A stretch of 64,000 nucleotides of DNA from an uncultured Verrucomicrobiota bacterium (GTDB lineage: Bacteria > Verrucomicrobiota > Kiritimatiellia > RZYC01 > CAZAYP01): NCBI GenBank assembly GCA_964489425.1, contig CAZAYP010000002.1, positions 82,725 through 146,724 on the forward strand. The letters run 5' to 3'. The position numbers and the translations under genes were made by a program. Below the pieces are notes generated by a model that saw nothing but the letters and a program-made list of their open reading frames with translations, did not search any database and was not told the DNA's origin. Shown in pieces: positions 391 through 64,000 of this stretch (within the stretch, counting starts at the first letter, position 1; each line of letters begins with the position of its first letter).

Positions 391-434
391 GGCCGGCCGC
401 CGGCTGGCGCTTCTGACCCGGCCCTGACGTACCC

Positions 435-833: not shown

Positions 834-858
834 GGGTGGTTCCTTTCCCCGGGCAGGG

Positions 859-1200
859 TCAGCTGCAGGCCTCGACGGCGGCCGGCACATCTTCGTAAAT
901 ATCGAACACCTTGAAGGCGCGGGTGATCTCAAAAACCATGCGTGGCTTTTTCTGCAGGCGCGCGATCTTCAGGTCGCCGCCCTGTTCGCTGATGCGCTTG
1001 AGCGCGGCCATTAAAACCCCCAGGCCCGCGCTATCCATCACTGTCACGCCGGCCAGATCCAAAACGTAGTTCTTGATGCCGGGTTCGGCCCGGACAATGT
1101 TGAGAAACTGCTCGCGAAAATCATCGGCCGTGGCCGCGGTCATCGGTTCCGCCACCGCCAGTATACCCACTTCGCCTTGTTTTGAAAACATCACCGCCAT
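859..1200 (-). CDS. STAS-domain anti-sigma-factor antagonist, second tandem copy
   Basis: 113-aa product ...GILAVAEPMTAATADDFREQF...YVLDLAGVTVMDSAGLGVLMAAL. GGAGGG ribosome-binding site 6-9 nt upstream of the ATG at 1200. Confidence 0.8.
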   Translation of the reverse strand: MAVMFSKQGEVGILAVAEPMTAATADDFREQFLNIVRAEPGIKNYVLDLAGVTVMDSAGLGVLMAALKRISEQGGDLKIARLQKKPRMVFEITRAFKVFDIYEDVPAAVEACS

Positions 1201-1408
1201 GGCCTGCCCTCCTTAAAAAGTGGATTCACTATGGCAGGTGCGCCTGGGCCTTGCAATCCTATATTTGCCGGTTGCAATACGCGCGCGGATGCTGGGCCGC
1301 GGCATCCCTTGGGTGAGCGCCAAGATATCCGGGGCTGAAAAAAGTTGCGCTATCCATAGTGCGCGGACATACTGCTGCCTGGCTTTACCCAATGGAGGAG
1401 GTTGTACC

Positions 1409-16769: not shown

Positions 16770-16851
16770 ATATTTAACGAAGAGTCCCTGAGGGTGTACT
16801 GATATGCAAAATGGGCACAACAGGCAGACTGGCATCCTGACGGTGGAGAAC

Positions 16852-38505: not shown

Positions 38506-39582
38506 ATGAACCGAATACTTTGGGCCGCGGCCTTGGGATGCCTGGGGCTTGCCGCGCATGGCCAGTACGTTCCAGACCAGATGAATTACCAGGCGATCCT
38601 GACGGACTACCGGGGCCAGGCGGTGACGAGCGTCATTTGCCAGGTCAAGTTCCGGTTGTACGATGAGGCCCAGGGCGGCAACCTGATATGGGGCGAGACC
38701 CTGGCGGTCACGACGACGGTGCGCGGCCTGTTCAGCGTGGTCCTGGGCACGGGCGCCGGCTTGGGCGAACCGACCGAGGCTACCAACCTGCGCGCCGCCT
38801 TCGCCTCCGGAACGCTGGTCGAGCAGCGGTATCTGGAGTTGCAGCCGTACACCCCGGAAGGCACCTTGCAGTCGCCCATCGCGCCCCGGCAACGGTTCCT
38901 GACCGCGCCGTACGTGTTCCAGGCCAACGATGCCCAGGAGGCGCTGGGCAGTTTCCAGGTGCGCGGGGCGCTCTACTCGCGCAATGCCGGCACGGACGTG
39001 AGCCGGCTGATCATGACCAACGCGGGTAGCTCCATCACGACGTTCGGCGACATGGTGATGGATGGGTCGCAGAAGACCGGCACGGCCGTTAACGCGAGTT
39101 TCAGCAGCACCACGGCGGTGCACTCGGCGGATGTGGATGCGTTGCGGGTGCATGGCAACCTGGCCGTGAGCCAGACCATGACCGTGGGCGGCACGGCGCT
39201 GTTTTACCAGGCGGTGTCCGCGGCGGACCCGGTTTTCCAAAAGGGCATGCGGGTGCAAGGGGTGCGCGCCCTGGGCAAGTACCAGAAGATCGCCAGCAGC
39301 ACGAACCGCCTGCCCTCGCGCGTGGCGCCGGGCGATGGGTTTGCGTTGATCTATTATAAAACGGATGGTTGGGATAGCTGCGAGTTGTCCGTTTCCAATC
39401 GCAGCATCGGATTTTCCTTGAAACACAAAGTGGATTGCGGCGCCTGCACCACGCACACGCTGCAATTCTATACGACTGGCCTTTACCCGATCGCCAAGGG
39501 CGACACCTGGTCCGTGCAGTTGCAGGACGGCGGGTCCAGCCATTCGTTGTTCGACGTCTATTGGATCCCGTACGGGTATTGA
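38506..39582 (+). CDS. Secreted protein, paralog 3 of the triplet
   Basis: GAGGTG ribosome-binding site, then ATG at 38506; signal MNRILWAAALGCLGLAAHG; motif QMNYQAILTDYRGQAVTSVICQVKFRLYDEAQGGNLIWGETLAVTTTVRGLFSVVLGTGAG...PRQRFLTAPYVFQANDA. The track shows it only as part of a 682-aa mis-framed ORF. Confidence 0.8.
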   Translation: MNRILWAAALGCLGLAAHGQYVPDQMNYQAILTDYRGQAVTSVICQVKFRLYDEAQGGNLIWGETLAVTTTVRGLFSVVLGTGAGLGEPTEATNLRAAFASGTLVEQRYLELQPYTPEGTLQSPIAPRQRFLTAPYVFQANDAQEALGSFQVRGALYSRNAGTDVSRLIMTNAGSSITTFGDMVMDGSQKTGTAVNASFSSTTAVHSADVDALRVHGNLAVSQTMTVGGTALFYQAVSAADPVFQKGMRVQGVRALGKYQKIASSTNRLPSRVAPGDGFALIYYKTDGWDSCELSVSNRSIGFSLKHKVDCGACTTHTLQFYTTGLYPIAKGDTWSVQLQDGGSSHSLFDVYWIPYGY

Positions 39583-39593
39583 AGGGAGCGTAT

Positions 39594-42500: not shown

Positions 42501-45500
42501 GATCAGGAGCGGCAGGCCGCCATGTACAACGTGGCGAACGGGATGAACACGCTGGAACTGACGACCTATATCCCGTTCACCCCGATCAAGGGTCATCTGG
42601 TCCAGGATCTGGTAACCGGGTACAAAGGCCTCATGTTGTATGCCACGTTTGCCGAACCCGGCGCGCCGGCCCTGGGCTCGCGCAAGTACACGCCGCAGGA
42701 GCATGCCGGGATCTATTATCAGAACGATAACACGCTTCCGGGCTTCAACCCCAACGAGGAACACGCCCTGCTGAATCGCGAGGGCGGTTACGACGTGGCC
42801 TATGCATTCCGCAACGACCTCAACCCCGTGTTCGGCGAGTCAGAGCCGTTTGTGCTTGTAAACTACATCGACCAGCTCACCGGGTTGCCGGCCATGGACG
42901 TGCTGCACGTCGCGCGGACCAACGAGATGTACCCGACGTTCGTGGATGCCACCCTCGCCGCGCAGCAGCTCGCCGGCCCGCATCCGCTGGACCTGGTGCC
43001 GTCGCACTGGACCGGCGCCGACATCCACGAGACCGGCCCGGCCTGGCAGTCCAAGCGGACGAAGGCGTGGTACGCCGTGGCTGGCGGCTCCTCGGCCACG
43101 GCCACCGCCAAGGTCGTCATGCGCAACTACTACCCGCAACAACCCGGGTACTGGTTCCCGGGGCTGTCCGCCGGCCTGCAGCCGGCACTTAACACCCCCA
43201 TCCCGTGGCTGCCCACCCTGTCGGCCTCCGATTACACCAAGTCCGACTACCCGACCAGCGGCCTGCCGCAGCAGGTGAGTTGGACCATCTCCTGGCCGGA
43301 TAACATTCCGACCCTGGCCGTGGGTGATACCCTGACCGTGGCGCGCGACGGGCTGCCTGACATCTGGGACCAGTTGAGCGTCGACATCGCGTACCAGCAG
43401 TCGACAACCAATCCCGCCATGCAGGATCGCATCAGCGTGTTCCTGTTCGATCCGTTGTGCCCGCGCGGCGCCACCTTGCCGCGGGAACTGGCCGAGTACG
43501 GGTTCGTGGTCGGCGGCCCCAACCCCACGATCTACATGCGCCAGGGCCGGTACTATTTCAACAACCTGCCGCCGGATTTGAGCGGCCGGTTTTTCTTTGA
43601 TCCCATGCTCAACCAGAGCAACCTGGTGCTGGTGGGCGAATACAACCAGCCCGTGGCCGGCCAGGGTTACTTGCTGGTCAACGAACTCACCGATGACCAG
43701 CGGGCCATCCTGATCGGCCTGGCGCCCTCCAACAACGAATACATCGCCGAATGGACCCAGGCCGTCGGGTTGCTGGCCAATGATGCGGTGGAAGTGCTGC
43801 CCAACCAGCCGTTCACCGGTATTGCCCTGAACGCGCCGGGCATGGGCGCAGGTTACGTGACGCTGGCCTTCAACGCCGCCACCAACCCGTTGCTGGGCGT
43901 GGGCCCGGGCAGCCCGGTCAACATGACGACCCTGCTGGTAGTCACCAACCTGGCCACGGGCGCGGTGATTCCGCTGGAAGATGAATACAACCTGCTGTCG
44001 GAGCAGATGAACATGCTGTTCAACCTCGATTTCGCCGGCGAGCCCGGCAACTTCGAGTTTGAGTGGCGCTGGAGCGAGCCTAACGCCAACGGCACCACGC
44101 CCACGGATCCCCTGACCTGCGATGTGTTCACCAATGGCCTGGGCATCAACAACCTGGTGCTCAACGGCCAGTCGCCCGAGGACCTGCTCAACCGGTTCTT
44201 TGCCGTGCGGTACCGGGCCGTGACCGGGGTGGTGGCCAGCGTGACCGGCACCAACTGGAGCGACTTCACCAGTTTTGCCCTGGCGGAAGGTTGGGTGCAG
44301 CGGATTCTGAACGCGTTGACGCCGTTCGAACAGCGCATGCGCGATCTATACAACAACGCCGTGGAAACGCAGGTCAGCATGATCATCGCCGCCGGCGCGC
44401 CGTACGAGGGGCCGATTGCCTTGAACCAGGACAATGTCAACAATGTCGGGCTGATCCAGATGTACCAGACGGTACTAAACCGGGCGCGCGCGGTCATGGA
44501 TGAGGCCGAACTGCACGATGCCAACGCCAACCAGCAACTGCTGCTGGCCGCCTCGCGCCTCAACGATCTGTACATGCTGCTGGGCAACGAGGCCTATGCC
44601 GATGCCATGGATCCCACCATCGGGTTCGGGTCGACCCTGACGCTGAACAACTCGGCGCCCATGCCGCTGGATTACGGCGCCTTGGCGTCCAGCCTGTTCT
44701 GCTTCGACAACCAGGTGGCGTCGCTGCTCGAGGAAGAATTGGCCCTGCTGCGGGGGCGTGGCAACGCCATCCTGGCTCCGGGCATGGGGCTGACGCCGGT
44801 CTACAACCGCCTGTTCTGGAACTACACCAAGGGCATCACCGCCGGCGAGGTGGCGTATTCCGTTAACTATGACATCAACGGCCACACCAACGTGATCATC
44901 GATGCCGAGACCGCGGCCGTGCGGTTCCCCCAGGGCCATGGGGACGCCTGGGGTTACTACCTCGACGCCCTCACGGTGTACTATAACCTGCTGAAGCTGC
45001 CGTGGTTTGATTGGGGGCTGCCCTCCATTTCCCCGATGCTGATGAACAATGTCACCATCGACGCGGATTACTTCGACGAGAAGAAGTTTGCCGAGGCTGG
45101 CGCGGCGTTGGCGCGTACCGGCGCTGAACTGATCGACCGCACCTATCGGCAGGGCTACACCGAGTCCCAGCAAAGCCTGTTCCCCGCGTACGAGGACGCC
45201 GACACCAACCGCGCCTGGGGCGTGGGCGAGTGGGGCACCCGGGTCGGGGTGGGCGCCTTGTGCAACTGGATGGTCGGCAACTCGCTGCTGCCGCTGCCGT
45301 CGTCGTGGCTCACCAATAGCACCTCGCTGGGCATGGCGGGCGCCGGGTACGCCCAGTGCGCCGCGGGCAACTATTTTGCCGGGGATTTCACCGTTGAAAT
45401 GTGGCTCTGGCTGCGCGGCCAGAACTTGGATCGGTCCATGGCCCTGCTGGACTTTAACGGGGCGGATGCGGCCAGCCGCGTGGCGTTGTACCTGGCGCCC

Positions 45501-48470: not shown

Positions 48471-48556
48471 AGAAAACGAGGAATGAGGAATGATGAACGA
48501 TGACCATCGGACGATAGGTTTCATAAGCATTGGCAGATTTTCCAGCGAGGCCCAAT

Positions 48557-49417
48557 ATGAAGAATAACCTGGTGGCTGGGGTGATCGCATGTGTTGTGGT
48601 TTCATCATTCATCGTTCAGTATTCATCGTTCTCTTCCCCCCCCATGCCATCCTTCCGCTACTTCGGCATGCTGGTGGATGAATACGGCTGGCCGTGCCGG
48701 GCGGACAGCGACACCGCGCTGGTGCTTTCCGTGCGCACCAACGAGTGCAGCCAGGCGGAGACCGACGAGCAGTTGGGCTACGGCATCAACTACGTCATCG
48801 AGGCGCCCATGGATTATCCCAACGCCAGCGCCTATGCTCCCTATGCGGCGCGGCCGGGCGATCCCGCGAGCCTGGCCGTGTGGGTGGGCGACGTGCAGCA
48901 GCCCCTGATGTCCACATCCGCCCTGCCGGCCATTGGCCAGCCCGGCCAGGCCGTGCGCGTGAATCTCAACCTGGGCACGGATACGGACCACGACGGCCTG
49001 TCCGACGAATGGGAGACCGACCTGATCATCAATAATTCCGGTGGCCTCTTCACCAACATCACCCAGGTGCTGGCCGGCGATGACTTTGACGGCGACGGCG
49101 CGACCAATGGGGATGAGTTTCGTGCCGGCACCGCGCCGGAGTGGGCGGGCGACGTCTTCGCCGTGTACGATTGGATGGCAGTGGAAAGCAACGGACTGGC
49201 GCTTTGTTTTTACACCGTCCAGGGCATGACCTATGAGCTGTTTTCCGTACCCTCCACGTTGGCCAACCGGGAGTTGGCCTGGCAGCGGACTGCGTTTCGC
49301 ACCAGCCCCGGGGGCGGGAACGCCTATACCTTCACGGCCCCCGCCTCGGAGCGCGCGTTCTTCTACGCGTATCCCACCAACACGGTCAAGCTGTTCCGGC
49401 TGCAGATCATGAAGTGA
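48557..49417 (+). CDS. Secreted protein with TSP3-type calcium-binding repeats and a C-terminal FN3-like module
   Basis: Signal MKNNLVAGVIACVVVSSFIV; repeats DTDHDGLSDEWETD and DDFDGDGATNGDE; C-terminus ...VKLFRLQIMK. Confidence 0.75.
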   Translation: MKNNLVAGVIACVVVSSFIVQYSSFSSPPMPSFRYFGMLVDEYGWPCRADSDTALVLSVRTNECSQAETDEQLGYGINYVIEAPMDYPNASAYAPYAARPGDPASLAVWVGDVQQPLMSTSALPAIGQPGQAVRVNLNLGTDTDHDGLSDEWETDLIINNSGGLFTNITQVLAGDDFDGDGATNGDEFRAGTAPEWAGDVFAVYDWMAVESNGLALCFYTVQGMTYELFSVPSTLANRELAWQRTAFRTSPGGGNAYTFTAPASERAFFYAYPTNTVKLFRLQIMK

Positions 49418-51096: not shown

Positions 51097-51762
51097 ATGG
51101 CCCCATTGCCACCGCCAGAGGCTTGCCCGGTTTGTTCTTCGGGCCGGACCGCGCGATTCCAAAGCATCGCTGACCGCGAGTACTGGCGCTGCACGACGTG
51201 CCTGGCGATCTTCCTCCACCCTGCGCAGCATCCGGATCCCGGGGCGGAAGAAGCCCGCTATCGTCTTCACCAAAATGATCCGGGCGACCCGGCCTATCGC
51301 CGCTTCCTCGCCAGGCTGGCCCAGCCGCTCCTGGCCCGGCTCGCGCCGGGCCGCGAAGGTTTGGATTACGGCTGTGGGCTGGCCCCGGCGTTGGCCGAGA
51401 TGCTGCGCGAGGCTGGGCACCGCGTGCGCTTGTACGACCCGTTCTTTCAGCCCGACGCGGCGGCCTTGGAGCAGACCTACGATTTCATCACCTGCACCGA
51501 AGTCGTGGAACACTTTCATCACCCGGCCTGCGAGTTCGCCCGGTTGGACGCCCTGCTGCGGCCCGGCGCCTGGCTTGCCATCATGACCCGTTTCCAAACC
51601 GATGATGAGCGCTTCGAGAACTGGCATTACCGGCGGGACCTGACGCATGTGGTGTTCTATCGCGGCGAAACATTTCAACTCTTGGCCGCGCGTTTCGGCT
51701 GGGATTGCGAGATCCCGGTCAGGGACGTGGTGCTGATGCGCCAACGCCGCGGGTGTGCTTGA
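51097..51762 (+). CDS. Zn-ribbon / class I SAM-dependent methyltransferase-like protein
   Basis: CPVCSS...CTTC ribbon, then DYGCGLAPALAEML, the glycine-rich SAM-binding motif. Start overlaps the prfC stop by 4 bp. Confidence 0.65.
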   Translation: MAPLPPPEACPVCSSGRTARFQSIADREYWRCTTCLAIFLHPAQHPDPGAEEARYRLHQNDPGDPAYRRFLARLAQPLLARLAPGREGLDYGCGLAPALAEMLREAGHRVRLYDPFFQPDAAALEQTYDFITCTEVVEHFHHPACEFARLDALLRPGAWLAIMTRFQTDDERFENWHYRRDLTHVVFYRGETFQLLAARFGWDCEIPVRDVVLMRQRRGCA

Positions 51763-51836: not shown

Positions 51837-54800
51837 ATGACAATGCGCGCGATTCCTGCTTGGTGGTTCCATGGCGTGGCGATGATCGGCTTGGCCGCGG
51901 TAACCTGCCAGGCCCAGTTTGTGGAAAACGGGCAGTCCTACCAAAACCGATCCAAGGGCACGAGCCTCAAGGCCGGCGACCCGATTTCCGCGGCGAATGG
52001 CGCGTTTTCCGACGAGTGGCTGCTGTTCGACCTGGGTGGGCCCATGGACTTGTATTTCAAGCTGATGTACCGGTCCGATCCGAACTACACGTGGAAGCGG
52101 AACCCGCAGGATTTTCCCCGGAATGATTTTGGCGACTATCAGCGGGTGCCGTTTTCGTGGGCGCCGGCGCCCATCATGGCCGTGGATGTGTGGGGAGGGC
52201 TGGCCGAGGTGGTGTTGCCCGAGGGCGATGTCATCAATTTCACCGGGTCCTTGGCCTCGGCCTGGGGCCTTGTGGATACATCCACCTTGGGCGATCCGCT
52301 CACCCGGGACAATGGCGTGCCGGTGGCCTACCAACTCCAGCAGAGCGGCGACTGGTTCTATTTCCTGGATCCCGAAACCGGGCGCTGCCTGATGTTCCAG
52401 TACTTTTCCAACACCCAGACGCGCGTGCGCTACGTTGTGGACCGTAACGGCAACCGGCTGGATTACACCTATGCCACTTGGACGAACACGAACCCGACGC
52501 GGATTTCGGATGGCCTGGGGCGTTCCCTTGACTTCATGTATTATTCGGGCAGCGGCGGCGAGAGCAACGGGTTGATGCGCGTGACGGACCACACGGGCCG
52601 GCACGTGGACTTTTGTTATACCGGGTTGGCGCCGGACAACCGCAATCTGTACACCCTGCGGGCTTTCAGCAATGCAGCCGGCCAGGTCACCACGTTTCTG
52701 TACCAGCCCAACCCGGTGGTGGGGCGCAAGTGCGAATTGCTCAGCCGGATCGTGACGCCGCTGGGCACAAGCCTTGTGTCCAACGAGTATGGCGCGGTGG
52801 CCCTGGCCGGGTACATGCCGGAAACGCGCGTGGTCCGCCAGGAGGATGCCTTGGGCCATGGCACCACGTTCGCCTATGAAAATGGGGCGGGCAGCTCGTA
52901 CGTGGCGCGCGTAGCATATCCTGACGGCACGTCGGAAATCTATGAGCATTTTTACCACCACGCTCCGCCCAAGGCGCTGACCGATGGCGCGGGCGCAACC
53001 ATGCGGTTTGCCAAAAACGACCACGAGCAGATAACGGCGGTGACCGATCGCCTGGGCGGCGTCACCGCGCTTGTTTATGACCCGGCGCGCCGGTGCCTGG
53101 CAGGCATGACCAATGCGTCCGGCCAGGCGCTGTCATTCCAGTATGGCTCGGTGACCCAAGGCTTCTTCAATCCTTACACGCTGCAAACCGTGTATTTTGG
53201 CATGGACCAGCTGGACCGGATGCTCCTGCCGGACGGTACACAAGAAACTTACTATTACGATAGCCGCGGCAATGTGACCTCAACCGTGGATCAGGCCGGC
53301 CAGGCGTGGGCCATTGCCTACAACAGCCTGGGCCTGCCCACGGCGATCCGCAACCCGGCCGGCGGCATGATCGTGAGCACATGGACAACCAACGGCACGC
53401 TCGCGGCGCAGGCTGATGCGGACGGTGTTCGGGAAAGCTACGGCTACGATGGCGCGTTCCGGTTAGTCGCCGTCACCAACGGTCTGGGCGGTGTGCGCCG
53501 GATGCAATATGATGCCCTGGACCGCGTGACCAACGCCGTCGATGAACTGGGGCATGCGTACAGTTTCTCTTTCGACGCCAACGGCAACGGGATCCGCGTG
53601 ACGGATCCGCTGGGATACTCGACCTTGTACTTTTACGATCGGATGGACCGGTTGACCAACATCACGGATCGCAGCGGCCATGCCTCTGTATATTCCTATG
53701 ACGTCATGGGCCGCTTGCAATCGTTTTGCGCACCAGACGGTGTAACCCGGCAATATGGGTATGACGCGCGCGGCTGGCAGGTCCGCGCCGCGATCGGCCC
53801 GGCCACGTGGAGCAACACCTATGATGCCGAGGGGCTCCTTCGTCAGGCATACACCCCGGCCGGCCGCACCTGGTTTCAAGATGTGAACGCGTTGGGCGAT
53901 GCAACCAACATCGTGGGCGCCGCAGGGCAACGGGTGACCATGACCTACGACTCCCTGCGTCGTCCGCTGGCCGCAACCGACGCCCGCGGTCAGTCGGTTA
54001 CGTTCCAATACGACCCGCGCGGCATGCTGACCCGCGCCGCTGTCGCCGGGCTGGGCGCCACCTCCAATAGTTTCAATGCCTTGGGCTTGTTGAGTGGCTT
54101 GCATGACCTGAACGGGCAGGTTTGGGCTTTCGGATACAGTGCCGCGGGCCGGCTGACTTCGCAAACCGACCCATTGGCCAACGCGATCAGCCTGACCTAT
54201 GATGCGGCCGGCCGGATGACCGCCCGATGCTCTCCAGGCCCCGGCGGCAGCAGCGTTACAAACCGGTACCAGTTCGATGCAGCCGGCAATCTCGTGAACA
54301 TCGTTTACAGCGATGGCACGGCGGTCCCCTTTGCCTATGATGCGCGCGGCGACCTGGTCTCTGCCGCCGGCATCGCGCTTGCACGCGATGCCGAGGGCCG
54401 CGTGACCAACACGGTCAGCGGCGGCGCGGCGTTCGGCGCATCGTACAACGCGGCCGGCCGGCTATCGGCGCTTACCTATTACAACGGCGGCCTCACCGTG
54501 TGGTATGAGTACGACGCCAACAACGGCCTGTTGCGTCGGGTGTCCAACAGCCTGACCGCGGCCTCGGTCTCGTTCCAGCACGATGCCGATGGTTTGGTCA
54601 CCAACCTGGTGCGTGGCAACGGCGTCCAAGCCTCGTTTGCTTATGACGCAGCCGGGCAGATGGTGCGGTTGCGCGATGGCAGTTTTCTGGATATCCGGAC
54701 AGCCTGCGACGCGGCCGGCCAGGCTACGCAGCAGGTGGCCACCTTGCCGCTGGACCCCGTGGCCTTGGTGGCCCCGGGGTTGCGCTCCAATCGCTACGAT

Positions 54801-56033
54801 GCCGCCTCCGGTATCGCCGGTGGCTATGCTTGCGATGCCTTGGGCCGCGTCACCCATACGCCTCACGGCGCCGTGGCCTGGGACGCGGCCGACCGGGTCA
54901 CGGGTTTGGGCCCGTCCACGTTCGCGTACGATGGCGTCGGGGCGTTGGCCATGCGCATCCAGCAAGGGCAGACCAACGTGTTTTGCTATAATTACGCTCT
55001 GCCGAACACCGCGGTTATGACCGAGCGTAATGGCGCCGGGGCCGTGCAACGCTATTACGTTTGGACCCCGGACGGCGACCTGCTGTTCATGATCGAAGCT
55101 GGGGCCACGAATGCCACGCGCTATGCCCATTTTGATCTTTCCGGCAACCTGGTGGCCTTAAGCGATGCGGCGGGCCAAATCACCGACACCTATGCGTACG
55201 ACCCGTTCGGCAAGTTGCTGGGCCATATCGGAGCCTCCATGCAACCCTGCACGTTTAACGGGAAAGCTGGCGCCCGCCGCGAAGGCGACCACGATTACTA
55301 TCGGATCGGCGCGCGCTGGTACGACGCCAATACCGGCCGGTTCCTGAGTCGCGAACCGCTCTGGCCCCAGTGGCGAGATCCGCGCCAGGCCAATCCCTAT
55401 CCCTACGCGCAGTTGGCGCCCATCCTGCGCGTGGACCGCAACGGCCTGAACGTTACCGATGCCCTGCTGCAGGGATACCAGGACCGGAATGAGGCGTTGA
55501 GAGAGGCTGCCGCCACTTACGGTGAATACACCCGGGACATGAGCTTTATGCTGGGCGCCTGGCAAGCCAGCGATCCTCAAACTCGACTGAACGCGCTGGA
55601 CGATCCCAAGCGCCGCGCCGCCACGTGGAAGACGCTGTTCCGGTGGGTGCAGCTTGAACAAGAGGTCAAGCTGCGTAGACTGCGGTTGCTCAAGTGGATC
55701 GCCGGCAACCGCCGCGCCATCCAGAAGGCGCTCGTCAATGTCCGCGCCCTGAAACCTGTAGTGCAACTACGCCTCGATAAATTCAAGCGGGAGGAACAGG
55801 CGCGCCTCCGCGACCTGCGGAATCGCTTGCCTTATGTTTGGGACGAAGCCCAGGCCGCCACAGCGCGCGGCGACTTCGAGGCCGCCCGGAAGTTGGCTGC
55901 TTCCATCAGTACCGGGAAGTGGATCGAGCGCAATGACGAGGCCGCCCAGGCGCAACTTCACTACGTAAATGGATTGGAGGATGCCCTGGAAGGCATCCTC
56001 CAGCAGGAGCAGAAGCTGAACCAGCAACCCTGA
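51837..56033 (+). CDS. Secreted RHS/YD-repeat protein with an uncharacterised ~225-aa C-terminal (putative toxin) domain
   Basis: AGGGAG ribosome-binding site; signal MTMRAIPAWWFHGVAMIGLAAVTCQA. Many YD repeats (YxYDxxGRL). RHS core terminus YYRIGARWYDANTGRFLSREPL at about 55300-55365, followed by a Lys/Arg-rich helical domain with no recognised family. Confidence 0.85.
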   Translation: MTMRAIPAWWFHGVAMIGLAAVTCQAQFVENGQSYQNRSKGTSLKAGDPISAANGAFSDEWLLFDLGGPMDLYFKLMYRSDPNYTWKRNPQDFPRNDFGDYQRVPFSWAPAPIMAVDVWGGLAEVVLPEGDVINFTGSLASAWGLVDTSTLGDPLTRDNGVPVAYQLQQSGDWFYFLDPETGRCLMFQYFSNTQTRVRYVVDRNGNRLDYTYATWTNTNPTRISDGLGRSLDFMYYSGSGGESNGLMRVTDHTGRHVDFCYTGLAPDNRNLYTLRAFSNAAGQVTTFLYQPNPVVGRKCELLSRIVTPLGTSLVSNEYGAVALAGYMPETRVVRQEDALGHGTTFAYENGAGSSYVARVAYPDGTSEIYEHFYHHAPPKALTDGAGATMRFAKNDHEQITAVTDRLGGVTALVYDPARRCLAGMTNASGQALSFQYGSVTQGFFNPYTLQTVYFGMDQLDRMLLPDGTQETYYYDSRGNVTSTVDQAGQAWAIAYNSLGLPTAIRNPAGGMIVSTWTTNGTLAAQADADGVRESYGYDGAFRLVAVTNGLGGVRRMQYDALDRVTNAVDELGHAYSFSFDANGNGIRVTDPLGYSTLYFYDRMDRLTNITDRSGHASVYSYDVMGRLQSFCAPDGVTRQYGYDARGWQVRAAIGPATWSNTYDAEGLLRQAYTPAGRTWFQDVNALGDATNIVGAAGQRVTMTYDSLRRPLAATDARGQSVTFQYDPRGMLTRAAVAGLGATSNSFNALGLLSGLHDLNGQVWAFGYSAAGRLTSQTDPLANAISLTYDAAGRMTARCSPGPGGSSVTNRYQFDAAGNLVNIVYSDGTAVPFAYDARGDLVSAAGIALARDAEGRVTNTVSGGAAFGASYNAAGRLSALTYYNGGLTVWYEYDANNGLLRRVSNSLTAASVSFQHDADGLVTNLVRGNGVQASFAYDAAGQMVRLRDGSFLDIRTACDAAGQATQQVATLPLDPVALVAPGLRSNRYDAASGIAGGYACDALGRVTHTPHGAVAWDAADRVTGLGPSTFAYDGVGALAMRIQQGQTNVFCYNYALPNTAVMTERNGAGAVQRYYVWTPDGDLLFMIEAGATNATRYAHFDLSGNLVALSDAAGQITDTYAYDPFGKLLGHIGASMQPCTFNGKAGARREGDHDYYRIGARWYDANTGRFLSREPLWPQWRDPRQANPYPYAQLAPILRVDRNGLNVTDALLQGYQDRNEALREAAATYGEYTRDMSFMLGAWQASDPQTRLNALDDPKRRAATWKTLFRWVQLEQEVKLRRLRLLKWIAGNRRAIQKALVNVRALKPVVQLRLDKFKREEQARLRDLRNRLPYVWDEAQAATARGDFEAARKLAASISTGKWIERNDEAAQAQLHYVNGLEDALEGILQQEQKLNQQP

Positions 56034-56082
56034 TCGCTGCGTGCGGTGCGGCGGATCGCGATGGAGCCGGCGCGAGCCGATC

Positions 56083-58626
56083 CTATCGGGCCGGGATCAG
56101 CGTGAGGTGCAGGGGGGCGGAAACGTCCGGCTGGCAGAAGGCGAATTCCAACGTGCGCCCCGGCTTGATATCCGCCGATAACGGGCCAAACGGCAGCAAC
56201 CCATGGGACTGGGTCCAGCGCGCAGCGGTCATTTCCTGGCCATTGAGCAGCACGCGGACGGCGCCGGCCGGGAGCCCATGGAACCGGAACGTCCAGTGGC
56301 GTTCCGCCGCCGCTTCCAGCCGGCCTTCAGTGGCTGCAACGGAAAGCGAGCGCTGCGGACCGCTGCTGATGAACTCGAGGCGCGTGCTGCGGAATCCGCC
56401 GTCCAGGTAGGCGTTTGAGTTGCCGTCATCCTCATACAGTTCGCGGGTTGTGACATGATCCTGATCGGTGCAAAACAAGTCCACCGCCACCTCCGGCCAT
56501 TGGGCCTGCCCGGCGTTTTGACGCAGCGGGATGGAGAAGACCATGCCGCCACCGCGCGCCAGCATGGGAACCTGGGTGAGCGGGGCCGCCTGTTCGTGGT
56601 GTCGGGGCCCGGAAAACGCTTGTCCGGTCCAGGCATCAAACCAGGTGCCAGGCGGGATCCACAGGGAGCGGGTGGTGGCGGGTTGCTCCGGCCGGCCCCA
56701 GAGGAATTCAAACATGGTGTGCCAGGTGCCATAGCTTCGATATTCCAGTTCCACGGCATACGAGCGCCCGGCCACCAGGTCCAGGTCAGCCCATTTGTAG
56801 ACTGGGCCAGGATTTTCAAAGTCATCGATCAAGACTCGGTCATCAAGGCGCAGGCGGGCTCCATCATCGGTGCGCACGCCCAGGCGGTAGCTGCCGCTGG
56901 CGGGGATGGGGCCCAGCGTGCCGGTCCAGCGCGCCGAAAACCCGTGCTGGGGCAATCCTTCCGCCGGCGGGCGGCCGAACCATCCGTGGTTTACCTCGGG
57001 CTCTACGCTGCGGAAGGCGGGATCGCCTTGCAAGCGGTCGTTGCCGTAATACGCGGCGTCCAGTCCCGGTGCCCCGCTGGCGGCGCGCAGCATGGCGGTG
57101 GGCACGGGGGTCAAGGGCACGGCCGCCTGCACCACGGGCGCTACCAGCAGGTCCGGCCCAAGCAAATACTGCGAGGCATCGGCGGCTTCGGGATGTTGTG
57201 GCCATTCCAGGTCACACCGCCGCAGCATGGGCGTGCCCGTGGTGAACGCCGCGCGCGCCGCCGCATAGATGGTGGGCAACAGGCGGTACCGCAGGCGGAC
57301 GTATTCTACCACGATCCGCTCGGCTTCCTCTCCAAACTTCCACGGGAAGCGGTGCAGCTTGTAGGAGCAATGCGGCCGGCAGACCGGGGACAACGCGCCA
57401 TATTGCATGAAACGGATGTACAGTTCGGCCGGGGGCGTGTCGTGATGACCACCCAGATCGTCGCTGACATACGGCAGCAGGGAAAGCACGCCGCTATTGA
57501 CGGCATTGCTCACCGCCCGCTGCAGGTGATCCCACGCGGCGCGGGTGTCGCCTGTCCACCAGATGGGATAGCGGTGGGCGGCCGGGTGGCTCGGGGCGTT
57601 GAAATAGCCGCTGTCAATGCCGTCCACGTTGGACATGATCAGGGGCCGCAGGCCTGGCCGGTGATGCTGGGTTACATCGTGATAGACGCGCATGCCCCAG
57701 GTTTCCTTGCCCAGCTCAGGGGCTGGAGACAGCAGCGCGGTGTGCCAGTTGCGGTCAAACCACCAATAATCCACGCCCATGGCGAGCAGCTTGGAGAGCC
57801 CCTCGGCGCGGTAGCGGAGCTCCGCGGGATCAAGGGCGGCCGGCGCAACCGGTTCCGGGTGGTCGTTCAGCATGACGCGCACGCCGCGTTCGTGAACGGC
57901 CTTGATAAACCCCGGCAGGTCCGGGAACAACTCGGTATTAATTTCGTAGCCGTGCGACGCGCCCACGCGCCAGTCCGTATCGAGCACGAAGATGTCCAGG
58001 GGGATGCCGCGGCGCTGGTACTCGTCGATCGTGGCCAGCGCTTCGTCCTGGCGGTAGGGGTAGTACCGGCTGTCGATCAGCCCGAAGGCGCACAGCGGCG
58101 GGATCGGGATGGGGCCGGTCAGCCGCAAAAAATCGGCGGCCAGTTGCCGGTACCCGCCGGCCCCGGGCAGGAACACGTAAATGTCGCGCGCCGGATTGGT
58201 TAGGTCCCAGCCGGCGGATGGTCCGTCCGGCGGCGGCAGCGCGCCCCACGGCGGCGGGACCATGCGCGGCAGGTCCGCGAACGCCCAGCCATCCGCGGCC
58301 GCAGAGGGCACGGGCAGGAGCCGCTTGGCCGGCACGGGGATGGCCCCATCGAACACCAGCGTTCCGGCTTGGTTCCGAATGCGGACATCCGCGATCCGGG
58401 GCTGGAGCCTTTCCACCGTGATGGTAAACTCGCCCAGGCGCAGGCAGGTGCCTCCCGATGAAGGGCATGGTTCCAAGGCGGCGCCCGGCCAATCGCGGTT
58501 GACCACGCAGAAGGTGGGCCGATCCTCGAAACCCTTGGGGCCGGCTTCTTCGATTCGTATCAAGGTGGGGGCCAGCGCCTGAACCCTTAGCTGGGAAGCA
58601 ACCAGAACGGACGCAATGGTGTTCAT
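56083..58626 (-). CDS. GH31-family alpha-glucosidase/alpha-xylosidase-like hydrolase with an inserted PA14 domain
   Basis: VDYWWFDRNW and IWWTGDTRAAW catalytic-region motifs; PA14-like FSARWTGTL...YRLGVRTDDGARLRLDDRVLIDDF. Start is either 58626 or 58644; neither has a clear ribosome-binding site. Confidence 0.8.
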   Translation of the reverse strand: MNTIASVLVASQLRVQALAPTLIRIEEAGPKGFEDRPTFCVVNRDWPGAALEPCPSSGGTCLRLGEFTITVERLQPRIADVRIRNQAGTLVFDGAIPVPAKRLLPVPSAAADGWAFADLPRMVPPPWGALPPPDGPSAGWDLTNPARDIYVFLPGAGGYRQLAADFLRLTGPIPIPPLCAFGLIDSRYYPYRQDEALATIDEYQRRGIPLDIFVLDTDWRVGASHGYEINTELFPDLPGFIKAVHERGVRVMLNDHPEPVAPAALDPAELRYRAEGLSKLLAMGVDYWWFDRNWHTALLSPAPELGKETWGMRVYHDVTQHHRPGLRPLIMSNVDGIDSGYFNAPSHPAAHRYPIWWTGDTRAAWDHLQRAVSNAVNSGVLSLLPYVSDDLGGHHDTPPAELYIRFMQYGALSPVCRPHCSYKLHRFPWKFGEEAERIVVEYVRLRYRLLPTIYAAARAAFTTGTPMLRRCDLEWPQHPEAADASQYLLGPDLLVAPVVQAAVPLTPVPTAMLRAASGAPGLDAAYYGNDRLQGDPAFRSVEPEVNHGWFGRPPAEGLPQHGFSARWTGTLGPIPASGSYRLGVRTDDGARLRLDDRVLIDDFENPGPVYKWADLDLVAGRSYAVELEYRSYGTWHTMFEFLWGRPEQPATTRSLWIPPGTWFDAWTGQAFSGPRHHEQAAPLTQVPMLARGGGMVFSIPLRQNAGQAQWPEVAVDLFCTDQDHVTTRELYEDDGNSNAYLDGGFRSTRLEFISSGPQRSLSVAATEGRLEAAAERHWTFRFHGLPAGAVRVLLNGQEMTAARWTQSHGLLPFGPLSADIKPGRTLEFAFCQPDVSAPLHLTLIPAR

Positions 58627-58788
58627 GCGGCCACTATAAAACATGACGCCCGGGGCCGCAATGCCGGCGTGTTGGTTCCCGGTCGCGCGTGGTTCAGCGC
58701 TTTCTTTTCCACGATCACTTGGCTATAACTTCTCGTGTCCGGTGGATGGAATCCGGCGACTATAACCGATGAAGATGGGAGCTGAATT

Positions 58789-60441
58789 ATGATCAGGAAA
58801 AAAGTGGCTTGCCTCGTGGCGTTGGGTTTTGCGATGGCTTGGGGCATGGTGGCCGGCGCCGGGGAGGCCAAGGTGACCGTCCGCGTCGTGGCCGATTCTT
58901 TGCCGGATCCGCAACAGGTGTTCCTGAGCGGGCAGGGGGCTCTGCTTGGGGATTGGAAGGCCGATGGCGTGCCCCTCGAACAGCAACCGGATCAAAGCTG
59001 GGTCGTCACCTTGCCTGTGCCTGCTCCCGCCACGTTGGAGTTCAAGGTCACGCGCGGCTCATGGGCTACGGAGGCGCTGGACAAGGAATTGAAGGTGCCC
59101 GGCAACACGGTCCTGGAAGTTACGGGTGACCAGACCCTGCAGATCGCGGTGCCCAAGTGGAAAGACGAACTGCCGTCGTCGGCCTCCGGCCAGGTCACGG
59201 GTACGCTCAAGTACCACCGCAATATGGAAGGCGATGGCCTGTTGCCCCGCGACGTGCTGGTCTGGCTGCCGCCGAGCTATGACCAGGACCCTGAGCGTCG
59301 GTACCCGGTGCTGTATATGCACGATGCCCAGCAGGTTTTTGATCCGGCTACATCCACGCACGGTGTGGATTGGGGCGTGGACGAAGCCGTGACCCGCCTG
59401 GCGGCCGACGGCCTGATGCAGGAGATCATCGTGGTCGCCACGACCTGCACGTCGGAACGCTTTGCGGATTACGCCGACGGCGAAAAGGGGAAAGCGTACC
59501 AGCGATTCATGGTTCAAAAGCTAAAGCCATTTATTGACCAGAACTATCGTACCCGGCCGGAGCGCGAGCACACCGCAGTCATGGGCGCGTCCATGGGCGG
59601 CCTGGCTTCCTTCCTGCTGGCCTGGCGTCACCCGGACGTGTTCAGCATGGCCGGGTGCCTGTCTTCAGCGTTCTGGCCGCCGCTCCTGCGCGAGGTGGCC
59701 GCCTATGACGGGCCGGCCAAAGACGTCCAGCTTTACATGGATAACGGGGGCGTGGGCCTGGAGCGGATCCTCCAGTCCGGCAACGACTGGATGCTGGAAG
59801 CCTTGCAGAAAAAGGGATTTGTTCTGGGGCAGAACCTGGTGTGGGTGCAGGATGCTGCAGCGGAGCACAACGAGGCGGCCTGGGCGCAGCGCGTGTGGAT
59901 GCCGCTGCGCTGGTTCTTCGGAACCGGTCCGCAGGATTGGGTGGCGGCGCTGCCGCTGCCGGCGGCCCCTTTGTTCGCTGAGCGGGACAAGGAGGACGTG
60001 CCGGTCACCGACCTGCCGGACATGAAGATCACCGGATGCCAGGCATCCTTGGGGCACCGGGGCCGTGCAGAAGCCAGCCAGAGTTGGGAGTGCCTCAGGG
60101 GAGCATCGGTTGCGGCGCCGGACCAACCCTTGGAATGGGTCGGCCTGGCCTGGGTGTTTGATGGCGATATCACGAACTATGTGGCTGGCAGCGGAGTTGC
60201 TCCCGATTCCGGGTCGTCGGCGCTGGTCACCGTGGATGTCCCGGCTGGCCGTTACCTTGAGTTTCAACACCCAGGTGACTGGTCGGACATGGAGGAAACC
60301 TATCACTTCATTTTCGGGTGGTGGCTGCCGCGCCATCAATATGAAGCTGCGGGGCCGGTGGTTGAGCGATATTCCGCCTGGCCGTTGGAATCCACGGACA
60401 AGGCGGTCCGCGTATTCGTGCCCTTCGAACAGATACCGTAA
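58789..60441 (+). CDS. Secreted esterase (alpha/beta-hydrolase, putative-esterase family) with an N-terminal beta-sandwich (CBM/Ig-like) module and a C-terminal unknown domain
   Basis: Signal MIRKKVACLVALGFAMAWGMVAGA; YPVLYMHDAQQVFD...TAVMGASMGGLASF (GxSxGG nucleophile elbow). Confidence 0.8.
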   Translation: MIRKKVACLVALGFAMAWGMVAGAGEAKVTVRVVADSLPDPQQVFLSGQGALLGDWKADGVPLEQQPDQSWVVTLPVPAPATLEFKVTRGSWATEALDKELKVPGNTVLEVTGDQTLQIAVPKWKDELPSSASGQVTGTLKYHRNMEGDGLLPRDVLVWLPPSYDQDPERRYPVLYMHDAQQVFDPATSTHGVDWGVDEAVTRLAADGLMQEIIVVATTCTSERFADYADGEKGKAYQRFMVQKLKPFIDQNYRTRPEREHTAVMGASMGGLASFLLAWRHPDVFSMAGCLSSAFWPPLLREVAAYDGPAKDVQLYMDNGGVGLERILQSGNDWMLEALQKKGFVLGQNLVWVQDAAAEHNEAAWAQRVWMPLRWFFGTGPQDWVAALPLPAAPLFAERDKEDVPVTDLPDMKITGCQASLGHRGRAEASQSWECLRGASVAAPDQPLEWVGLAWVFDGDITNYVAGSGVAPDSGSSALVTVDVPAGRYLEFQHPGDWSDMEETYHFIFGWWLPRHQYEAAGPVVERYSAWPLESTDKAVRVFVPFEQIP

Positions 60442-61807: not shown

Positions 61808-64000
61808 TCAATTGGGCGGCGGGACAAAATAGAAGCCGTTGTTCACCCAGATCGTGTAATAGCACGCCTGGCCCGAGGGAACCGGGCCGTGCCGGTACAC
61901 CTGGTTGGTATCCTCGTAGATAATCGCGCCGTCAGCGGCATTGGAGGGGTAATGCTCGGGATGGTACATGACCCGCACCAGTTGGTTGGAAAGCCCGCAG
62001 ATGAGCGGGTTGGTCCATCGCAGGACCACGTTGCTCTCGAACGCAAAAGCCTGGAACCAGAACGCCGGGTAGCCGGTGGTGATGGTGTAGAGGCTGGTGG
62101 CCTGGTTGTTCAGCTCGTTGTTTTCCGCCAGCGTGTTCTGGCTGTCCACGAACGCGCGGAAGGTTTTCTGGCCGTTGACCGATCCGGTCTCCAGCCGGTT
62201 GAAGCTGATGATCTTGGTCTGGTTGGTCGCCAGCAGGCCGACCACGGACGATAAATCGCCCAGTTCTCCGGCGGCCGCCGTGGTGGTCTTGTTCACCCAC
62301 ACGGACAGCACGCCGGCGTTGACCGGTTCCGTGCTTTTGTTTTGTACCAGCACGTGGGCATCCAGCGTGCGGTCGTAATCGTCGTAATAAATGCTCATGG
62401 CCAGGATGGCCACGTCCACGTGCCGGTATACTTCGAACCGGCCCGTGACGGCGCGGGTTTGATCCAGGGCCATGGTCAGCGGGTTCTGGTTGGTCTGCGC
62501 GTTCGGAACCCCGAGCCAGCCGCCGAACATGTAGCCGGCGGACGGCGCCGCGGTGATCGTGATGCTGCCGCCCAGCGCGTACCAGCCGGCATTGGAACCA
62601 CGGACCACGCCGGGTCCGGCTGCGGCGCGCGAAAAATAGACGTTGGTCTTCCACAACCAGGAGAGGACTGCATCGTTGGTGACCAGCATGACGCAGTTCG
62701 AGCCGGTGCCGCTGGCGGGCGCGTGGTCGCTCAGGCTCCAGCCGTGGCCCACGTACTGGGTGCCGTCGCCGGTCAGCACCGCGCCGGTCAGGCGGTTCGT
62801 GATGCTGGTTCCGTAGCGGTTGGTCCACCAACCGGCCTCCGGGCTGCAGCCCCCATGTTCGCTCAGGATCCACAGGGTGTGGTGGTCGCGCCTAAAATGG
62901 GCGGCAATGGACCGGGCGCGGTTCATGACCAGGGTGATGGCCAGATCGTTCGTGTTGGCCGCGGGCACGTCGCCGCGCCAGCCATGGAAGGAAACCAGGG
63001 CCGCGGGTTCGGCGGTGACGGTCACGCTGCTGCCCATGGCGTACCAGCCGGTGACTGCGCCGGTGACCTGCCCCGTGCCCACGGCCTGCGCCTGGAACAG
63101 CACGTTGGTGGCGCCCCAGAGCCAGGTGAGGGTGGCGTCGTTGGTCAGCGCCAGCCGCAGGTTGGTGGCCGTGCCCGAAATGGCGTCCACGCCGGCCAGC
63201 GACCATCCGGCCGCCACGTACTGCGTGCCGGCCGCATCCACGGCCGGCGTCCAAATCCAGTTGGTGAGCAGGGCCCCATGGCCCACGGTGTGCACGCCGG
63301 CCGGTGGGCAGGCCGTGCCGTGCTCGCTCAGCACCGTGAATTGCCGCGTTTCGCTCCAGAACCGCGAGGTGACGCAGTGCCGGCTGTCGAGGGTCAGCGT
63401 GAGCGGGTTGTTGTTGGTCAGCACGGCGGGGAGGTCGCCGGCCCAGCCGGCAAAATGGGCGCCGGCGGATGGCACGGCGGTGACCGTCACGGAGCCCCCC
63501 AGGGGATACCAGCCGCTGGCGTGGCCGTGGTTGAGGCCGCCGGCCTGTGCCGCGGCATCGAAGCGCACCAGGGTTCCGCCTTCCCACAGCCAGGTCAGCG
63601 TGGCGTTGTTGGTGATGGTCATGGCCATGATGTTGGTGGTCCCGGAGGCCGGGCTGTGCCCCGCCAGGATCCAGCCGGAGCAGACCCTTTGCGTCCCCTG
63701 GCCGGCGGCGGCCGGCGACACCACCTGGTTGATGAGGGTGCAATGATCGTCGTAGGAATACATGCCTGGCGCCGGAGTGGCCGGGCCATACGCCGAGTCC
63801 ACCGTCAGGGCGTACTGGTCAATGTGAAAGCGGGCCGTGACCGACCGCGCGCAGTCCATGGCCAGGGTGATGGCCGGATTGTTGGTCAACAGGTCGGGCA
63901 GGTCGCCGGCCCAGCCCTTGAACACCGCGTAGGCATTGGGGGTCGCCGTAACCGTCACGCTGGAGCCCCAGGCTTTCCAGCCGCCGGTTGACCCGTCCAC
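61808..64000 (-). CDS. Partial (N-terminus beyond the window) giant surface protein with InlB-B-repeat-like domains, a CARDB-like domain and a C-terminal FN3-like segment
   Basis: Recurrent ...F.GWAGDLP..LTNNP(L/I)TL.MD..R.VTA.F units; CARDB-like NAGVLSVWVNK...FVDSQNTLAENNELNNQAT. The ORF is open at 64000. Confidence 0.8.
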   Translation of the reverse strand: MDGSTGGWKAWGSSVTVTATPNAYAVFKGWAGDLPDLLTNNPAITLAMDCARSVTARFHIDQYALTVDSAYGPATPAPGMYSYDDHCTLINQVVSPAAAGQGTQRVCSGWILAGHSPASGTTNIMAMTITNNATLTWLWEGGTLVRFDAAAQAGGLNHGHASGWYPLGGSVTVTAVPSAGAHFAGWAGDLPAVLTNNNPLTLTLDSRHCVTSRFWSETRQFTVLSEHGTACPPAGVHTVGHGALLTNWIWTPAVDAAGTQYVAAGWSLAGVDAISGTATNLRLALTNDATLTWLWGATNVLFQAQAVGTGQVTGAVTGWYAMGSSVTVTAEPAALVSFHGWRGDVPAANTNDLAITLVMNRARSIAAHFRRDHHTLWILSEHGGCSPEAGWWTNRYGTSITNRLTGAVLTGDGTQYVGHGWSLSDHAPASGTGSNCVMLVTNDAVLSWLWKTNVYFSRAAAGPGVVRGSNAGWYALGGSITITAAPSAGYMFGGWLGVPNAQTNQNPLTMALDQTRAVTGRFEVYRHVDVAILAMSIYYDDYDRTLDAHVLVQNKSTEPVNAGVLSVWVNKTTTAAAGELGDLSSVVGLLATNQTKIISFNRLETGSVNGQKTFRAFVDSQNTLAENNELNNQATSLYTITTGYPAFWFQAFAFESNVVLRWTNPLICGLSNQLVRVMYHPEHYPSNAADGAIIYEDTNQVYRHGPVPSGQACYYTIWVNNGFYFVPPPN

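Follow-up and report, generated by a model that had tools for sequence, protein, structure and literature searches.

The stretch of DNA analysed here, referred to as the window, comprises 64,000 nucleotides (positions 82,725 to 146,724 of contig CAZAYP010000002.1) from an uncultured Verrucomicrobiota bacterium, and carries on its plus strand a gene for an RHS/YD-repeat protein (51837-56033; 1398 amino acids plus stop). The open reading frame (ORF) is intact, without frameshift, and is preceded by a Shine-Dalgarno-like motif (AGAGGGAG) about 10 nt 5' of the ATG; its translation is the same protein as the public gene call P0001. The N-terminus, read by eye from the sequence, resembles a Sec signal peptide, with a basic n-region, a hydrophobic h-region and a C-Q-A cleavage-type motif, and the putative signal peptide covers residues 1-26 (51837-51914, plus strand; MTMRAIPAWWFHGVAMIGLAAVTCQA, followed by QF). 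No match to PAAR, prePAAR, VgrG, SpvB/TcB or any other N-terminal trafficking domain was found for this protein in Pfam or NCBIfam. An earlier note, made from the letters of the window, had described an RHS protein whose C-terminal domain was unclassified, whose N-terminus was a Sec signal peptide and not of a PAAR or type VI secretion system (T6SS) type, and which had no adjacent immunity gene; its reading of the N-terminus agrees with the layout found here.

The putative signal peptide is followed by an N-terminal plug region (residues 47-83; 51975-52085, plus strand), which is DUF6531-like, the match to PF20148 (E 3e-4, 21.5 bits) being slightly below the cut-off of 24.1. At residues 49-56, this region contains PISAANGA, the window protein's version of a P[IV]xxxxG[A/E] motif that is conserved across the RHS clade. 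In T6SS Rhs proteins, the corresponding motif, PVxxxxGE, marks the N-terminal cleavage (preprint 10.1101/2024.02.26.582050); the window protein has Ala for Glu, as do 40 of the 75 motif-bearing homologues. The YD/RHS-repeat shell extends approximately from 52086 to 55196 on the plus strand and was matched by PF05593 (RHS_repeat; 14 stretches, E 5.4e-71), by TIGR01643 (YD_repeat_2x; 11 stretches, E 1.8e-40) and partially by NF041261 (RHS_core), while PF25023 (TEN_YD-shell) was found as a precomputed match on the protein. The multiple YD/RHS repeats that characterise the RHS family are therefore present.

The RHS-associated core that closes the shell is also present, at residues 1121-1204 (55197-55448, plus strand), where TIGR03696 (Rhs_assc_core) was matched over profile positions 1-76 of 76 with 41.1 bits against a cut-off of 32.5. 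This putative C-terminal plug and autoprotease region ends in DRNGL, its last residues being APILRVDRNGL, at L1204. The canonical cleavage motif is PxxxxDPxGL (preprint 10.1101/2024.02.26.582050), and the aspartyl autoprotease motif has been given as DPxG-x18/19-DPxG[LWF], with the cut after the last residue (PMC10684867). Since TIGR03696 ends at L1204, the position of the canonical cleavage motif, the C-terminal domain (hereafter the tail) was assigned to residues 1205-1398 (55449-56030, plus strand), that is, to 194 amino acids. The earlier note had taken GRFLSREPL as the end of the core, 28 residues too early, and had consequently described a tail of about 225 amino acids from 55365, whereas it starts 84 nt later. 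In the window protein, the protease motif reads E1173-P-L-W, 23 residues, and D1200-R-N-G-L1204, and thus both carboxylates (E1173 and D1200) are retained while the first Asp is changed to Glu, the first Gly to Trp and the second Pro to Arg. Among the clade homologues, the Asp of the terminal DxxG[L] is present in all terminal-motif variants tallied, and at the first carboxylate Glu and Asp are equal in number among the pattern-matched relatives.

The tail is basic, with 33 Lys and Arg against 26 Asp and Glu among its 194 residues, a calculated isoelectric point (pI) of 9.8 and a molecular mass of 22 kDa. Ala, Leu, Arg and Gln are abundant in it, and there is one His but no Cys. The maximum of its 19-residue Kyte-Doolittle hydropathy is 0.59, and it has no membrane-spanning segment. 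No model of Pfam, NCBIfam, PADLOC or PHROGs matched the tail, even at E values up to 10, and comparison with PDB sequences, using both the single sequence and a profile, gave nothing below E 0.8; the tail thus falls into no recognised toxin family. A match to a known non-toxic domain, which the earlier note had named as evidence against its view, was likewise not found in these five collections. An exhaustive phmmer scan of 1.84 billion cluster representatives, which stand for about 15 billion proteins, returned only the window protein itself and a single homologue, P0002 (E 5.6e-16, 35% identity over residues 5-189). Pattern-based scans for relatives of the tail in GTDB genomes and JGI metagenome contigs found none. 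A word-indexed homologue search with the tail alone or with the two-sequence tail alignment was also empty and missed even P0001, which is in its database; because P0001 itself was not returned, these negatives are uninformative and the exhaustive phmmer scan was relied on instead. Negatives of this word-indexed search for short, compositionally biased sub-sequences are not to be trusted.

The tail of P0002 has the same length and stop position as that of the window protein and shares 66 invariant columns with it, including the motifs DPK.RA..WK..F, AGNR.AI.KAL and ARGD..AA.K. By sequence, the two tails are significantly similar over the whole domain and constitute a new family of C-terminal domains. 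The tails of P0011 and P0027, which are 48% identical to each other, are probably remote relatives. In shuffle-controlled Smith-Waterman comparisons, these two ranked as the top two of the compared tails for P0001, with z values of 3.5-5.4 across both queries, and hhalign aligned a RLL.F.A....A[IVM][QR]KAL block at E 0.008 over 38 columns, yet with a probability of 5%. The motifs DP...R, RLL.F/W.A and A[IVM][QR]KAL are common to the tails of the candidate family, and an unusual D[AR][ND]GL core terminus is common to P0001, P0002, P0011 and P0027. The family is new and very small, with two certain (P0001 and P0002) and four probable members; P0011 and P0027 may belong to it. That the tail is a real conserved domain follows from the conservation of length and 35% identity in P0002 and from the confident models described below.

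Several enzymatic assignments were considered for the tail and rejected. A Fic/Doc toxin, which the AGNR(R/Q)AI(Q/R)KAL motif had suggested, was discarded because the tail lacks one Gly and the catalytic His of HxFx[DE]GNGRxxR, and because neither sequence nor fold gave a Fic match. A HEPN or HNH nuclease was discarded because the lone His is not conserved in P0002. With a single His, no Cys and no conservation of either residue in P0002, the tail is unlikely to be one of the usual enzymes, and nuclease, deaminase or peptidase chemistries that need these residues are unlikely.

Structure prediction with AlphaFold2 (AF2) gave, for the window tail, a confident and closed, elongated all-alpha bundle of six helices (pLDDT 84.5, pTM 0.61), in accordance with the earlier description of a Lys/Arg-rich helical tail. 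The tail of P0011 was likewise predicted as an elongated all-alpha bundle (pLDDT 85.1, pTM 0.66), and the predicted succession of helices is similar in both, with lengths of 39-9-(34+52)-12-31 residues in the window tail and 39-9-91-22-27 residues in that of P0011. Foldseek searches of the tail models against PDB and BFVD revealed no significant fold match, only generic helical bundles and coiled-coil proteins. The best PDB match of the window tail was the sub-threshold hit AhlC (E 0.083, probability 0.91, TM-score 0.30), with ClyA at ranks 5-6, while the sub-threshold list for P0011 included XaxB, YaxA, AhlC, AhlB, SmhB and MakA. F-BAR domains and subunits of ClyA-family alpha-pore toxins were among the best sub-threshold matches of both models. 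The modelled folds therefore point to a long helical bundle and, at most, hint at an activity on membrane surfaces. A colicin-like or Tse5-like membrane-inserting pore former was rejected, as the tail has no hydrophobic hairpin.

Comparison of tails and shells showed that both have diverged nearly in parallel. Between P0001 and P0002, identity was 47% in the core, 58% in the last 200 core residues and 34% in the tail; between P0011 and P0027, the corresponding values were 66, 74, and 48%. The GC content is flat over the junction of core and tail in the window gene (0.62-0.64). From this near-parallel divergence and the flat GC content at the P0001 junction it follows that, within these two pairs, the tail is old, vertically inherited and faster evolving than the shell, and not a recently displaced cassette. 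Neither orphan cassettes or extra immunity genes nearby nor an abrupt break at the junction were observed. In the wider clade, unrelated tails occur despite similar shells, as in P0011 and P0009, which are encoded in tandem (45% core identity), and in P0001 and P0013 (41%); over longer time scales, tails are replaced. A putative trafficking signal, repeats and a C-terminus varying among relatives, the combination by which polymorphic toxins are recognised, occur together here, and diverse tails on related shells are the diversification pattern of polymorphic effectors.

At the 3' end of the RHS gene, a gap of 49 bp (56034-56082) separates it from a convergent gene on the minus strand (56083-58644) encoding an 853-amino-acid GH31 glycoside hydrolase with a PA14 domain (PF01055, PF07691, PF21365, PF17137), given here as context. 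The convergent orientation and the 49-bp gap are as the earlier note had stated, whereas the end it gave for the GH31 gene (58626) was wrong. A terminator hairpin in this gap was considered and discarded, for no terminator-like site was found in it and its folding is no stronger than that of shuffled sequence (z = 0.15). Of the plus-strand ORFs overlapping the tail or lying beyond it, none is credible; they have 28-46 amino acids, are rich in Arg, Gly and Pro and are apparently spurious. The 46-residue ORF at 56041-56181 was rejected as an immunity gene, being Arg/Gly-rich and overlapping the 3' end of the GH31 gene in antisense. No immunity gene is therefore found directly downstream on the same strand, as the earlier note had claimed, and the overlapping plus-strand ORF that it had named as an argument to the contrary was sought and did not appear. 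The 64-kb window contains no second RHS copy and no tail-like or orphan C-terminal cassette, its large ORFs include no components of a T6SS, of other secretion systems or of conflict systems, and SpvB, TcB and TcA domains are absent from the RHS protein and its neighbours.

Upstream of the RHS gene lie prfC and a gene for a class I S-adenosylmethionine (SAM) methyltransferase of 221 amino acids (51097-51762, plus strand; PF13489, E 6.8e-26), the latter, mentioned for context, at 74 bp from the RHS gene. The methyltransferase was rejected as an immunity protein or partner since it is not conserved beside related RHS genes and is dissimilar to the upstream gene in locus L003. A conserved prfC-RHS synteny was rejected as well, being absent in L007, the closest genome by RF3 identity. 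The RF3 encoded by prfC shares 74% identity with that of a Lentisphaerae MAG and 60-68% with those of Verrucomicrobiota, and the source of the window is an uncultured bacterium of the Planctomycetes-Verrucomicrobia-Chlamydiae (PVC) superphylum for which there is no close species representative.

The closest 120 RHS proteins are 30-46% identical to the window protein, and the nearest named relatives are from Kiritimatiellae. By a crude Kyte-Doolittle test, 101 of these 120 homologues have a hydrophobic N-terminal stretch, and none of the 120 carries a precomputed Pfam toxin domain. The tails of the clade are highly diverse and mostly have about 105-400 amino acids. Inspection of eight related loci revealed no classical immunity gene in any of them, so that the missing immunity gene is a property of the clade and not of the window gene. 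A signal peptide, an unclassified tail and no immunity gene are typical of this environmental RHS clade.

In all eight loci, the RHS gene adjoins a gene for a small secreted protein (about 200-300 amino acids) with exactly two YD repeats; in most cases, TSP3 repeats come next, and then a C-terminal beta-sandwich that ends in ..F[FY]RL... The partner gene lies upstream of the RHS gene in L003 (4113-4811), which holds P0011 and then P0009 in tandem with a 44-bp spacer, in L004 (667-1266; P0027), in L005 (1173-1871), where the second of two abutting RHS genes is P0015, in L006 (321-1004), where P0013 is followed by a convergent gene, and in L087 (4167-4943; P0023), and downstream in L002 (5890-6798; P0002), L088 (9213-9869; P0058) and L089 (9310-9921; P0005). 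Four of the partner copies are 79-91% identical although their RHS genes have different tails; since the copies of L003 and L006 are about 80% identical beside different tails, the partner is not a tail-specific immunity protein. The genes for 203-218 amino acids downstream of the RHS genes in L088 and L089 were rejected as immunity genes on recognition as further copies of the secreted two-YD partner. In addition, the tandem full-length RHS genes of L003 (4826-13280) and L005 (1879-10284) are 0-44 bp apart, with no immunity gene between them and with unrelated tails. We know of no description of this two-YD partner, which could tether or dock onto the RHS shell; it is absent beside the window RHS gene. 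The window gene encodes a Sec-type RHS protein with an unclassified C-terminal domain, and the pairing with two-YD proteins and the absence of immunity genes form a clade-wide lead that lies mostly outside the window.

Side observations were made in the same loci and tails. In L087, a cluster of GspG-, H-, I-, J-, and K-like pseudopilin genes (339-3568) follows PilM/GspL and stands directly upstream of the genes for the small YD protein and P0023; this type II secretion system (T2SS) adjacency fits a T2SS-dependent export of the RHS clade. A NDLW.[YF]....[DG].W..V motif stands at the start of, or is repeated in, many other tails of the clade, namely those of P0018, P0019, P0028, P0030, P0042, P0045, and P0047 and likewise in those of P0059, P0067, P0068, P0110, and P0112, and looks like another unclassified recurrent tail module; the end of the P0013 tail has a stretch similar to it, with a weak Kelch_4 match. 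The sequence H[TV]GPREA[PA]AKA is common to the second halves of the otherwise dissimilar tails of P0013, P0009, and P0015.

Among the known systems closest to the window protein are signal-peptide RHS toxins, of which WapA of Bacillus subtilis, with its immunity protein WapI, has been studied. The arrangement of signal peptide, RHS repeats and variable C-terminus is catalogued as a polymorphic-toxin architecture in the T2SS/Sec-dependent row of Table 1 of Zhang et al. (2012; PMC3482391). Like these Sec/T2SS-type toxins, the window protein has a (putative) signal peptide, YD/RHS repeats, an RHS-associated core and a variable C-terminus, with tails that differ among related shells. Unlike them, it has no recognisable toxin domain, no downstream immunity gene and no orphan cassettes; its tail has co-diverged with the shell instead of being swapped in, and its protease motif is degenerate. 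The facts that the earlier note had assembled on this point stand, but the oddity it implied is weakened, since the architecture is catalogued, 101 of 120 relatives have a hydrophobic N-terminal stretch as well, no classical immunity gene was seen in the eight related loci and the tail was not recently swapped.

Resemblances to T6SS Rhs effectors (Tse5 of Pseudomonas aeruginosa, RhsA, Rhs1, RhsP, and Tse15) include the YD shell, a putative DUF6531-type plug, a DxxGL C-terminal plug and a small payload, those of T6SS Rhs proteins having about 16-38 kDa; the payload of Tse5 is largely helical. In contrast to these effectors, the window protein has a Sec-type signal peptide instead of a PAAR, prePAAR or VgrG-binding N-terminus, and neither an Eag chaperone nor T6SS genes were found in the 64-kb window; the protein also lacks an immunity gene (Tse5 has Tsi5), and its tail shows neither sequence similarity to PDB chains nor a hydrophobic segment. 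In the TcB-TcC (BC) cocoon of Tc/ABC toxins, which are directed at eukaryotes and have no immunity genes, an RHS shell encapsulates and autoproteolytically frees a C-terminal payload. An RHS shell, a C-terminal payload and the lack of an immunity gene are shared by the window protein, in which encapsulation and release would be analogous; it differs in having no TcB/SpvB beta-propeller, no TcA gene nearby and its own signal peptide, and in a payload that is no ADP-ribosyltransferase or known enzyme. The modelled tail resembles members of the ClyA family (ClyA, AhlC, XaxB, YaxA, SmhB, and MakA) in being an elongated antiparallel helical bundle, but would be delivered as an RHS tail and not as a free subunit. 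Finally, teneurin YD-shell proteins share with it the PF25023 TEN_YD-shell, an extracellular location (predicted here) and the lack of pairing with an immunity protein; unlike teneurins, the window protein is bacterial, has no transmembrane anchor, EGF or NHL domains, and its C-terminus is not ABD/Tox-GHH.

The explanation we favour, with a probability of about 0.45, is that of an encapsulated Sec-exported RHS protein whose tail is a non-enzymatic effector against non-kin targets. The protein would be exported through Sec, the YD shell would close round the tail, and the carboxylate pair of the plug, E1173 and D1200, would cut after L1204; the released helical tail would then bind a target or a membrane surface outside the cytoplasm of the producer. 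The target would be something that the producer does not expose, for example in a eukaryote or an unrelated microbe, and for this reason, we propose, no cognate immunity gene stands alongside. Polymorphic-type toxins without immunity genes have indeed been interpreted as acting on distant targets, eukaryotes among them (Zhang et al., 2012; PMC3482391). Further points in favour are the architecture and domain boundary, the retained carboxylates, the signal-peptide-like N-termini of the clade, the unrelated tails of related shells, the lack of conserved His and Cys, and the weak membrane hint from the fold matches. At 22 kDa, the tail fits among Rhs payloads, which reach about 38 kDa, and the interior of the one Rhs container examined is negatively charged (preprint 10.1101/2024.02.26.582050); the basic charge of the tail (pI 9.8) was therefore counted in favour of encapsulation.

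Several findings weigh against this explanation. There is no direct evidence of toxicity, and we infer export, encapsulation, cleavage, effector activity and the kind of target; what the analysis shows is the domain architecture and boundary, the near-orphan, helical and basic tail with neither a transmembrane segment nor conserved His or Cys, and the lack of an adjacent immunity gene here and in relatives. The protease motif is degenerate in its two halves, which read EPLW and DRNG where DPxG is canonical, so that the tail need not be cut off. Co-divergence with the shell and an unbroken GC content befit an integral, vertically inherited part of the protein and not a mobile toxin cassette. 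The AF2 models of the tails were built on two-sequence alignments, their fold matches are insignificant (E at least 0.08, TM-score at most 0.35 against ClyA-family chains) and may reflect mere bundle shape, and the tail has no hydrophobic head or transmembrane hairpin. The neighbours of the RHS gene, moreover, encode housekeeping, carbohydrate-active or giant surface proteins, and none is a secretion or conflict gene.

Some of the same evidence would suit a non-toxic, teneurin-like surface or extracellular structural protein, with the tail as a stalk, oligomerisation, anchoring or binding module that may remain joined to the shell or form a permanent plug inside it. This is the main rival and a serious one, though less probable, and it draws on the degenerate protease motifs, on the absence of immunity genes here and in the eight related loci, on the tail having co-diverged with the shell across a junction with no compositional break, and on fold matches to generic coiled-coil and bundle proteins. 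It is also favoured by a neighbourhood rich in giant secreted or adhesin-like proteins (with MBG, Laminin_G_3, Ig-like, and InlB B-repeat domains), and by the pairing of related RHS genes with small secreted YD and TSP3 proteins instead of immunity proteins, TSP3 being a calcium-binding repeat of adhesive type. Yet a fixed structural role is hard to square with unrelated tails on closely related shells and with tandem RHS genes; the RHS-associated core is complete and keeps its terminal Asp, and the size and basic charge of the tail suit an encapsulated payload. The protein could also be an antibacterial polymorphic toxin of the classical kind, with a cognate immunity gene that stands in another part of the genome or that went unrecognised on account of small size or unusual sequence; the search covered 64 kb, and the contig has at least 222 kb. 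The polymorphic-toxin architecture of signal peptide, RHS repeats and variable C-terminus speaks for this reading, which we nevertheless regard as unlikely: no plausible ORF overlaps or follows the tail, the window holds no orphan tail cassette or second RHS copy, and P0002 has no shared small neighbour as a candidate, its downstream gene being the generic YD/TSP3 partner, which is not tail-specific (about 80% identity beside different tails in L003 and L006). Immunity genes unlinked from their toxin are, in addition, unusual in polymorphic toxin systems (PMC3482391).

Two readings concern the nature of the tail itself. As a sub-case of the favoured effector explanation, the tail could be a true alpha-helical pore-forming toxin of the ClyA-family type inside an RHS shell, for which Tse5 is a precedent as a pore-forming Rhs payload (PMC10684867, PMC9637101). 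AhlC as top PDB fold match, ClyA at ranks 5-6, the recurrence of ClyA-family names for the independently modelled P0011 tail and the Trp at the tip of the first helical hairpin, conserved in four of the four candidate family members, are consistent with this. The chance is small all the same: TM-scores were 0.2-0.35 with root-mean-square deviations above 12 Å and all E-values above 0.08, no sequence signal was found against PDB or Pfam, and the tail is about 100 residues shorter than ClyA-family subunits. A transmembrane helix typically has a 19-residue hydropathy of about 1.6, against maxima of 0.59-0.74 here, and the tail has no hydrophobic head, beta-tongue or segment of transmembrane length. 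The helical tail domain with hydrophobic head that marks the ClyA family is thus not seen here. It is highly improbable that the tail is a decaying, functionless remnant, such as a pre-toxin linker left after loss of the toxin module. This was suggested by several other tails of the clade, such as those of P0013, P0009, and P0015, which start with a charged helical stretch and then continue into a further module, but P0002 stops at the equivalent position and is 35% identical throughout the 190 residues, AF2 confidently predicts a closed bundle and the ORF is intact.

A wider reading, which goes beyond the window protein and which we consider rather doubtful, is that these proteins form an undescribed class of Sec/T2SS-exported RHS cocoons without immunity proteins, with a small two-YD secreted partner, mainly in uncultured PVC bacteria, Chloroflexi and other environmental bacteria. 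Their payloads would be novel non-enzymatic effectors against eukaryotic grazers or non-kin, or else non-toxic cargo, and the helical tail would be the first of a new family of effector folds. RHS shells serve widely to encapsulate and deliver proteins, and, to our knowledge, mechanistic understanding of them comes nearly entirely from T6SS and Tc systems in Proteobacteria, while environmental bacteria hold many signal-peptide RHS proteins with payloads unlike known toxins and without immunity genes. If the tail is an active effector, it would represent a new payload family and would support the view that some RHS systems target non-kin. On present evidence, however, it joins thousands of other unclassified RHS tails and gives no hint of an unusual mechanism; it could be entered in expression and toxicity screens.

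Elsewhere, the window codes for giant secreted proteins, carbohydrate-active enzymes, a PAS histidine kinase and the like. The giants, predicted to be secreted or surface-exposed, lie at 1220-6361, 16804-25329, and 39435-48470 on the plus strand and at 7859-16648 and 61808-64000 on the minus strand. Among these giants are a 2929-amino-acid protein with 12 MBG domains and also Ig-like domains, and a 3011-amino-acid protein with three Laminin_G_3 domains, while window proteins of 1713 and 2841 amino acids showed only a short match to an alpha-amylase catalytic domain, and a further window protein of more than 730 amino acids has InlB B-repeat and CARDB domains. Of the two-YD partner proteins of the related loci, only the C-terminal TSP3 and beta-sandwich module has counterparts in the window. 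It occurs in a secreted ORF of 295 amino acids (48530-49417, plus strand) and at the end of the 2841-amino-acid ORF (24913-25323 within 16804-25329, plus strand), and may be a lineage-specific sorting or anchoring domain. Beyond the GH31 gene, the ORF at 58789-60441 (plus strand) encodes an unusual 550-amino-acid fusion of a CBM20 starch-binding domain, an esterase and a GyrI-like/Cass2 small-molecule-binding domain.

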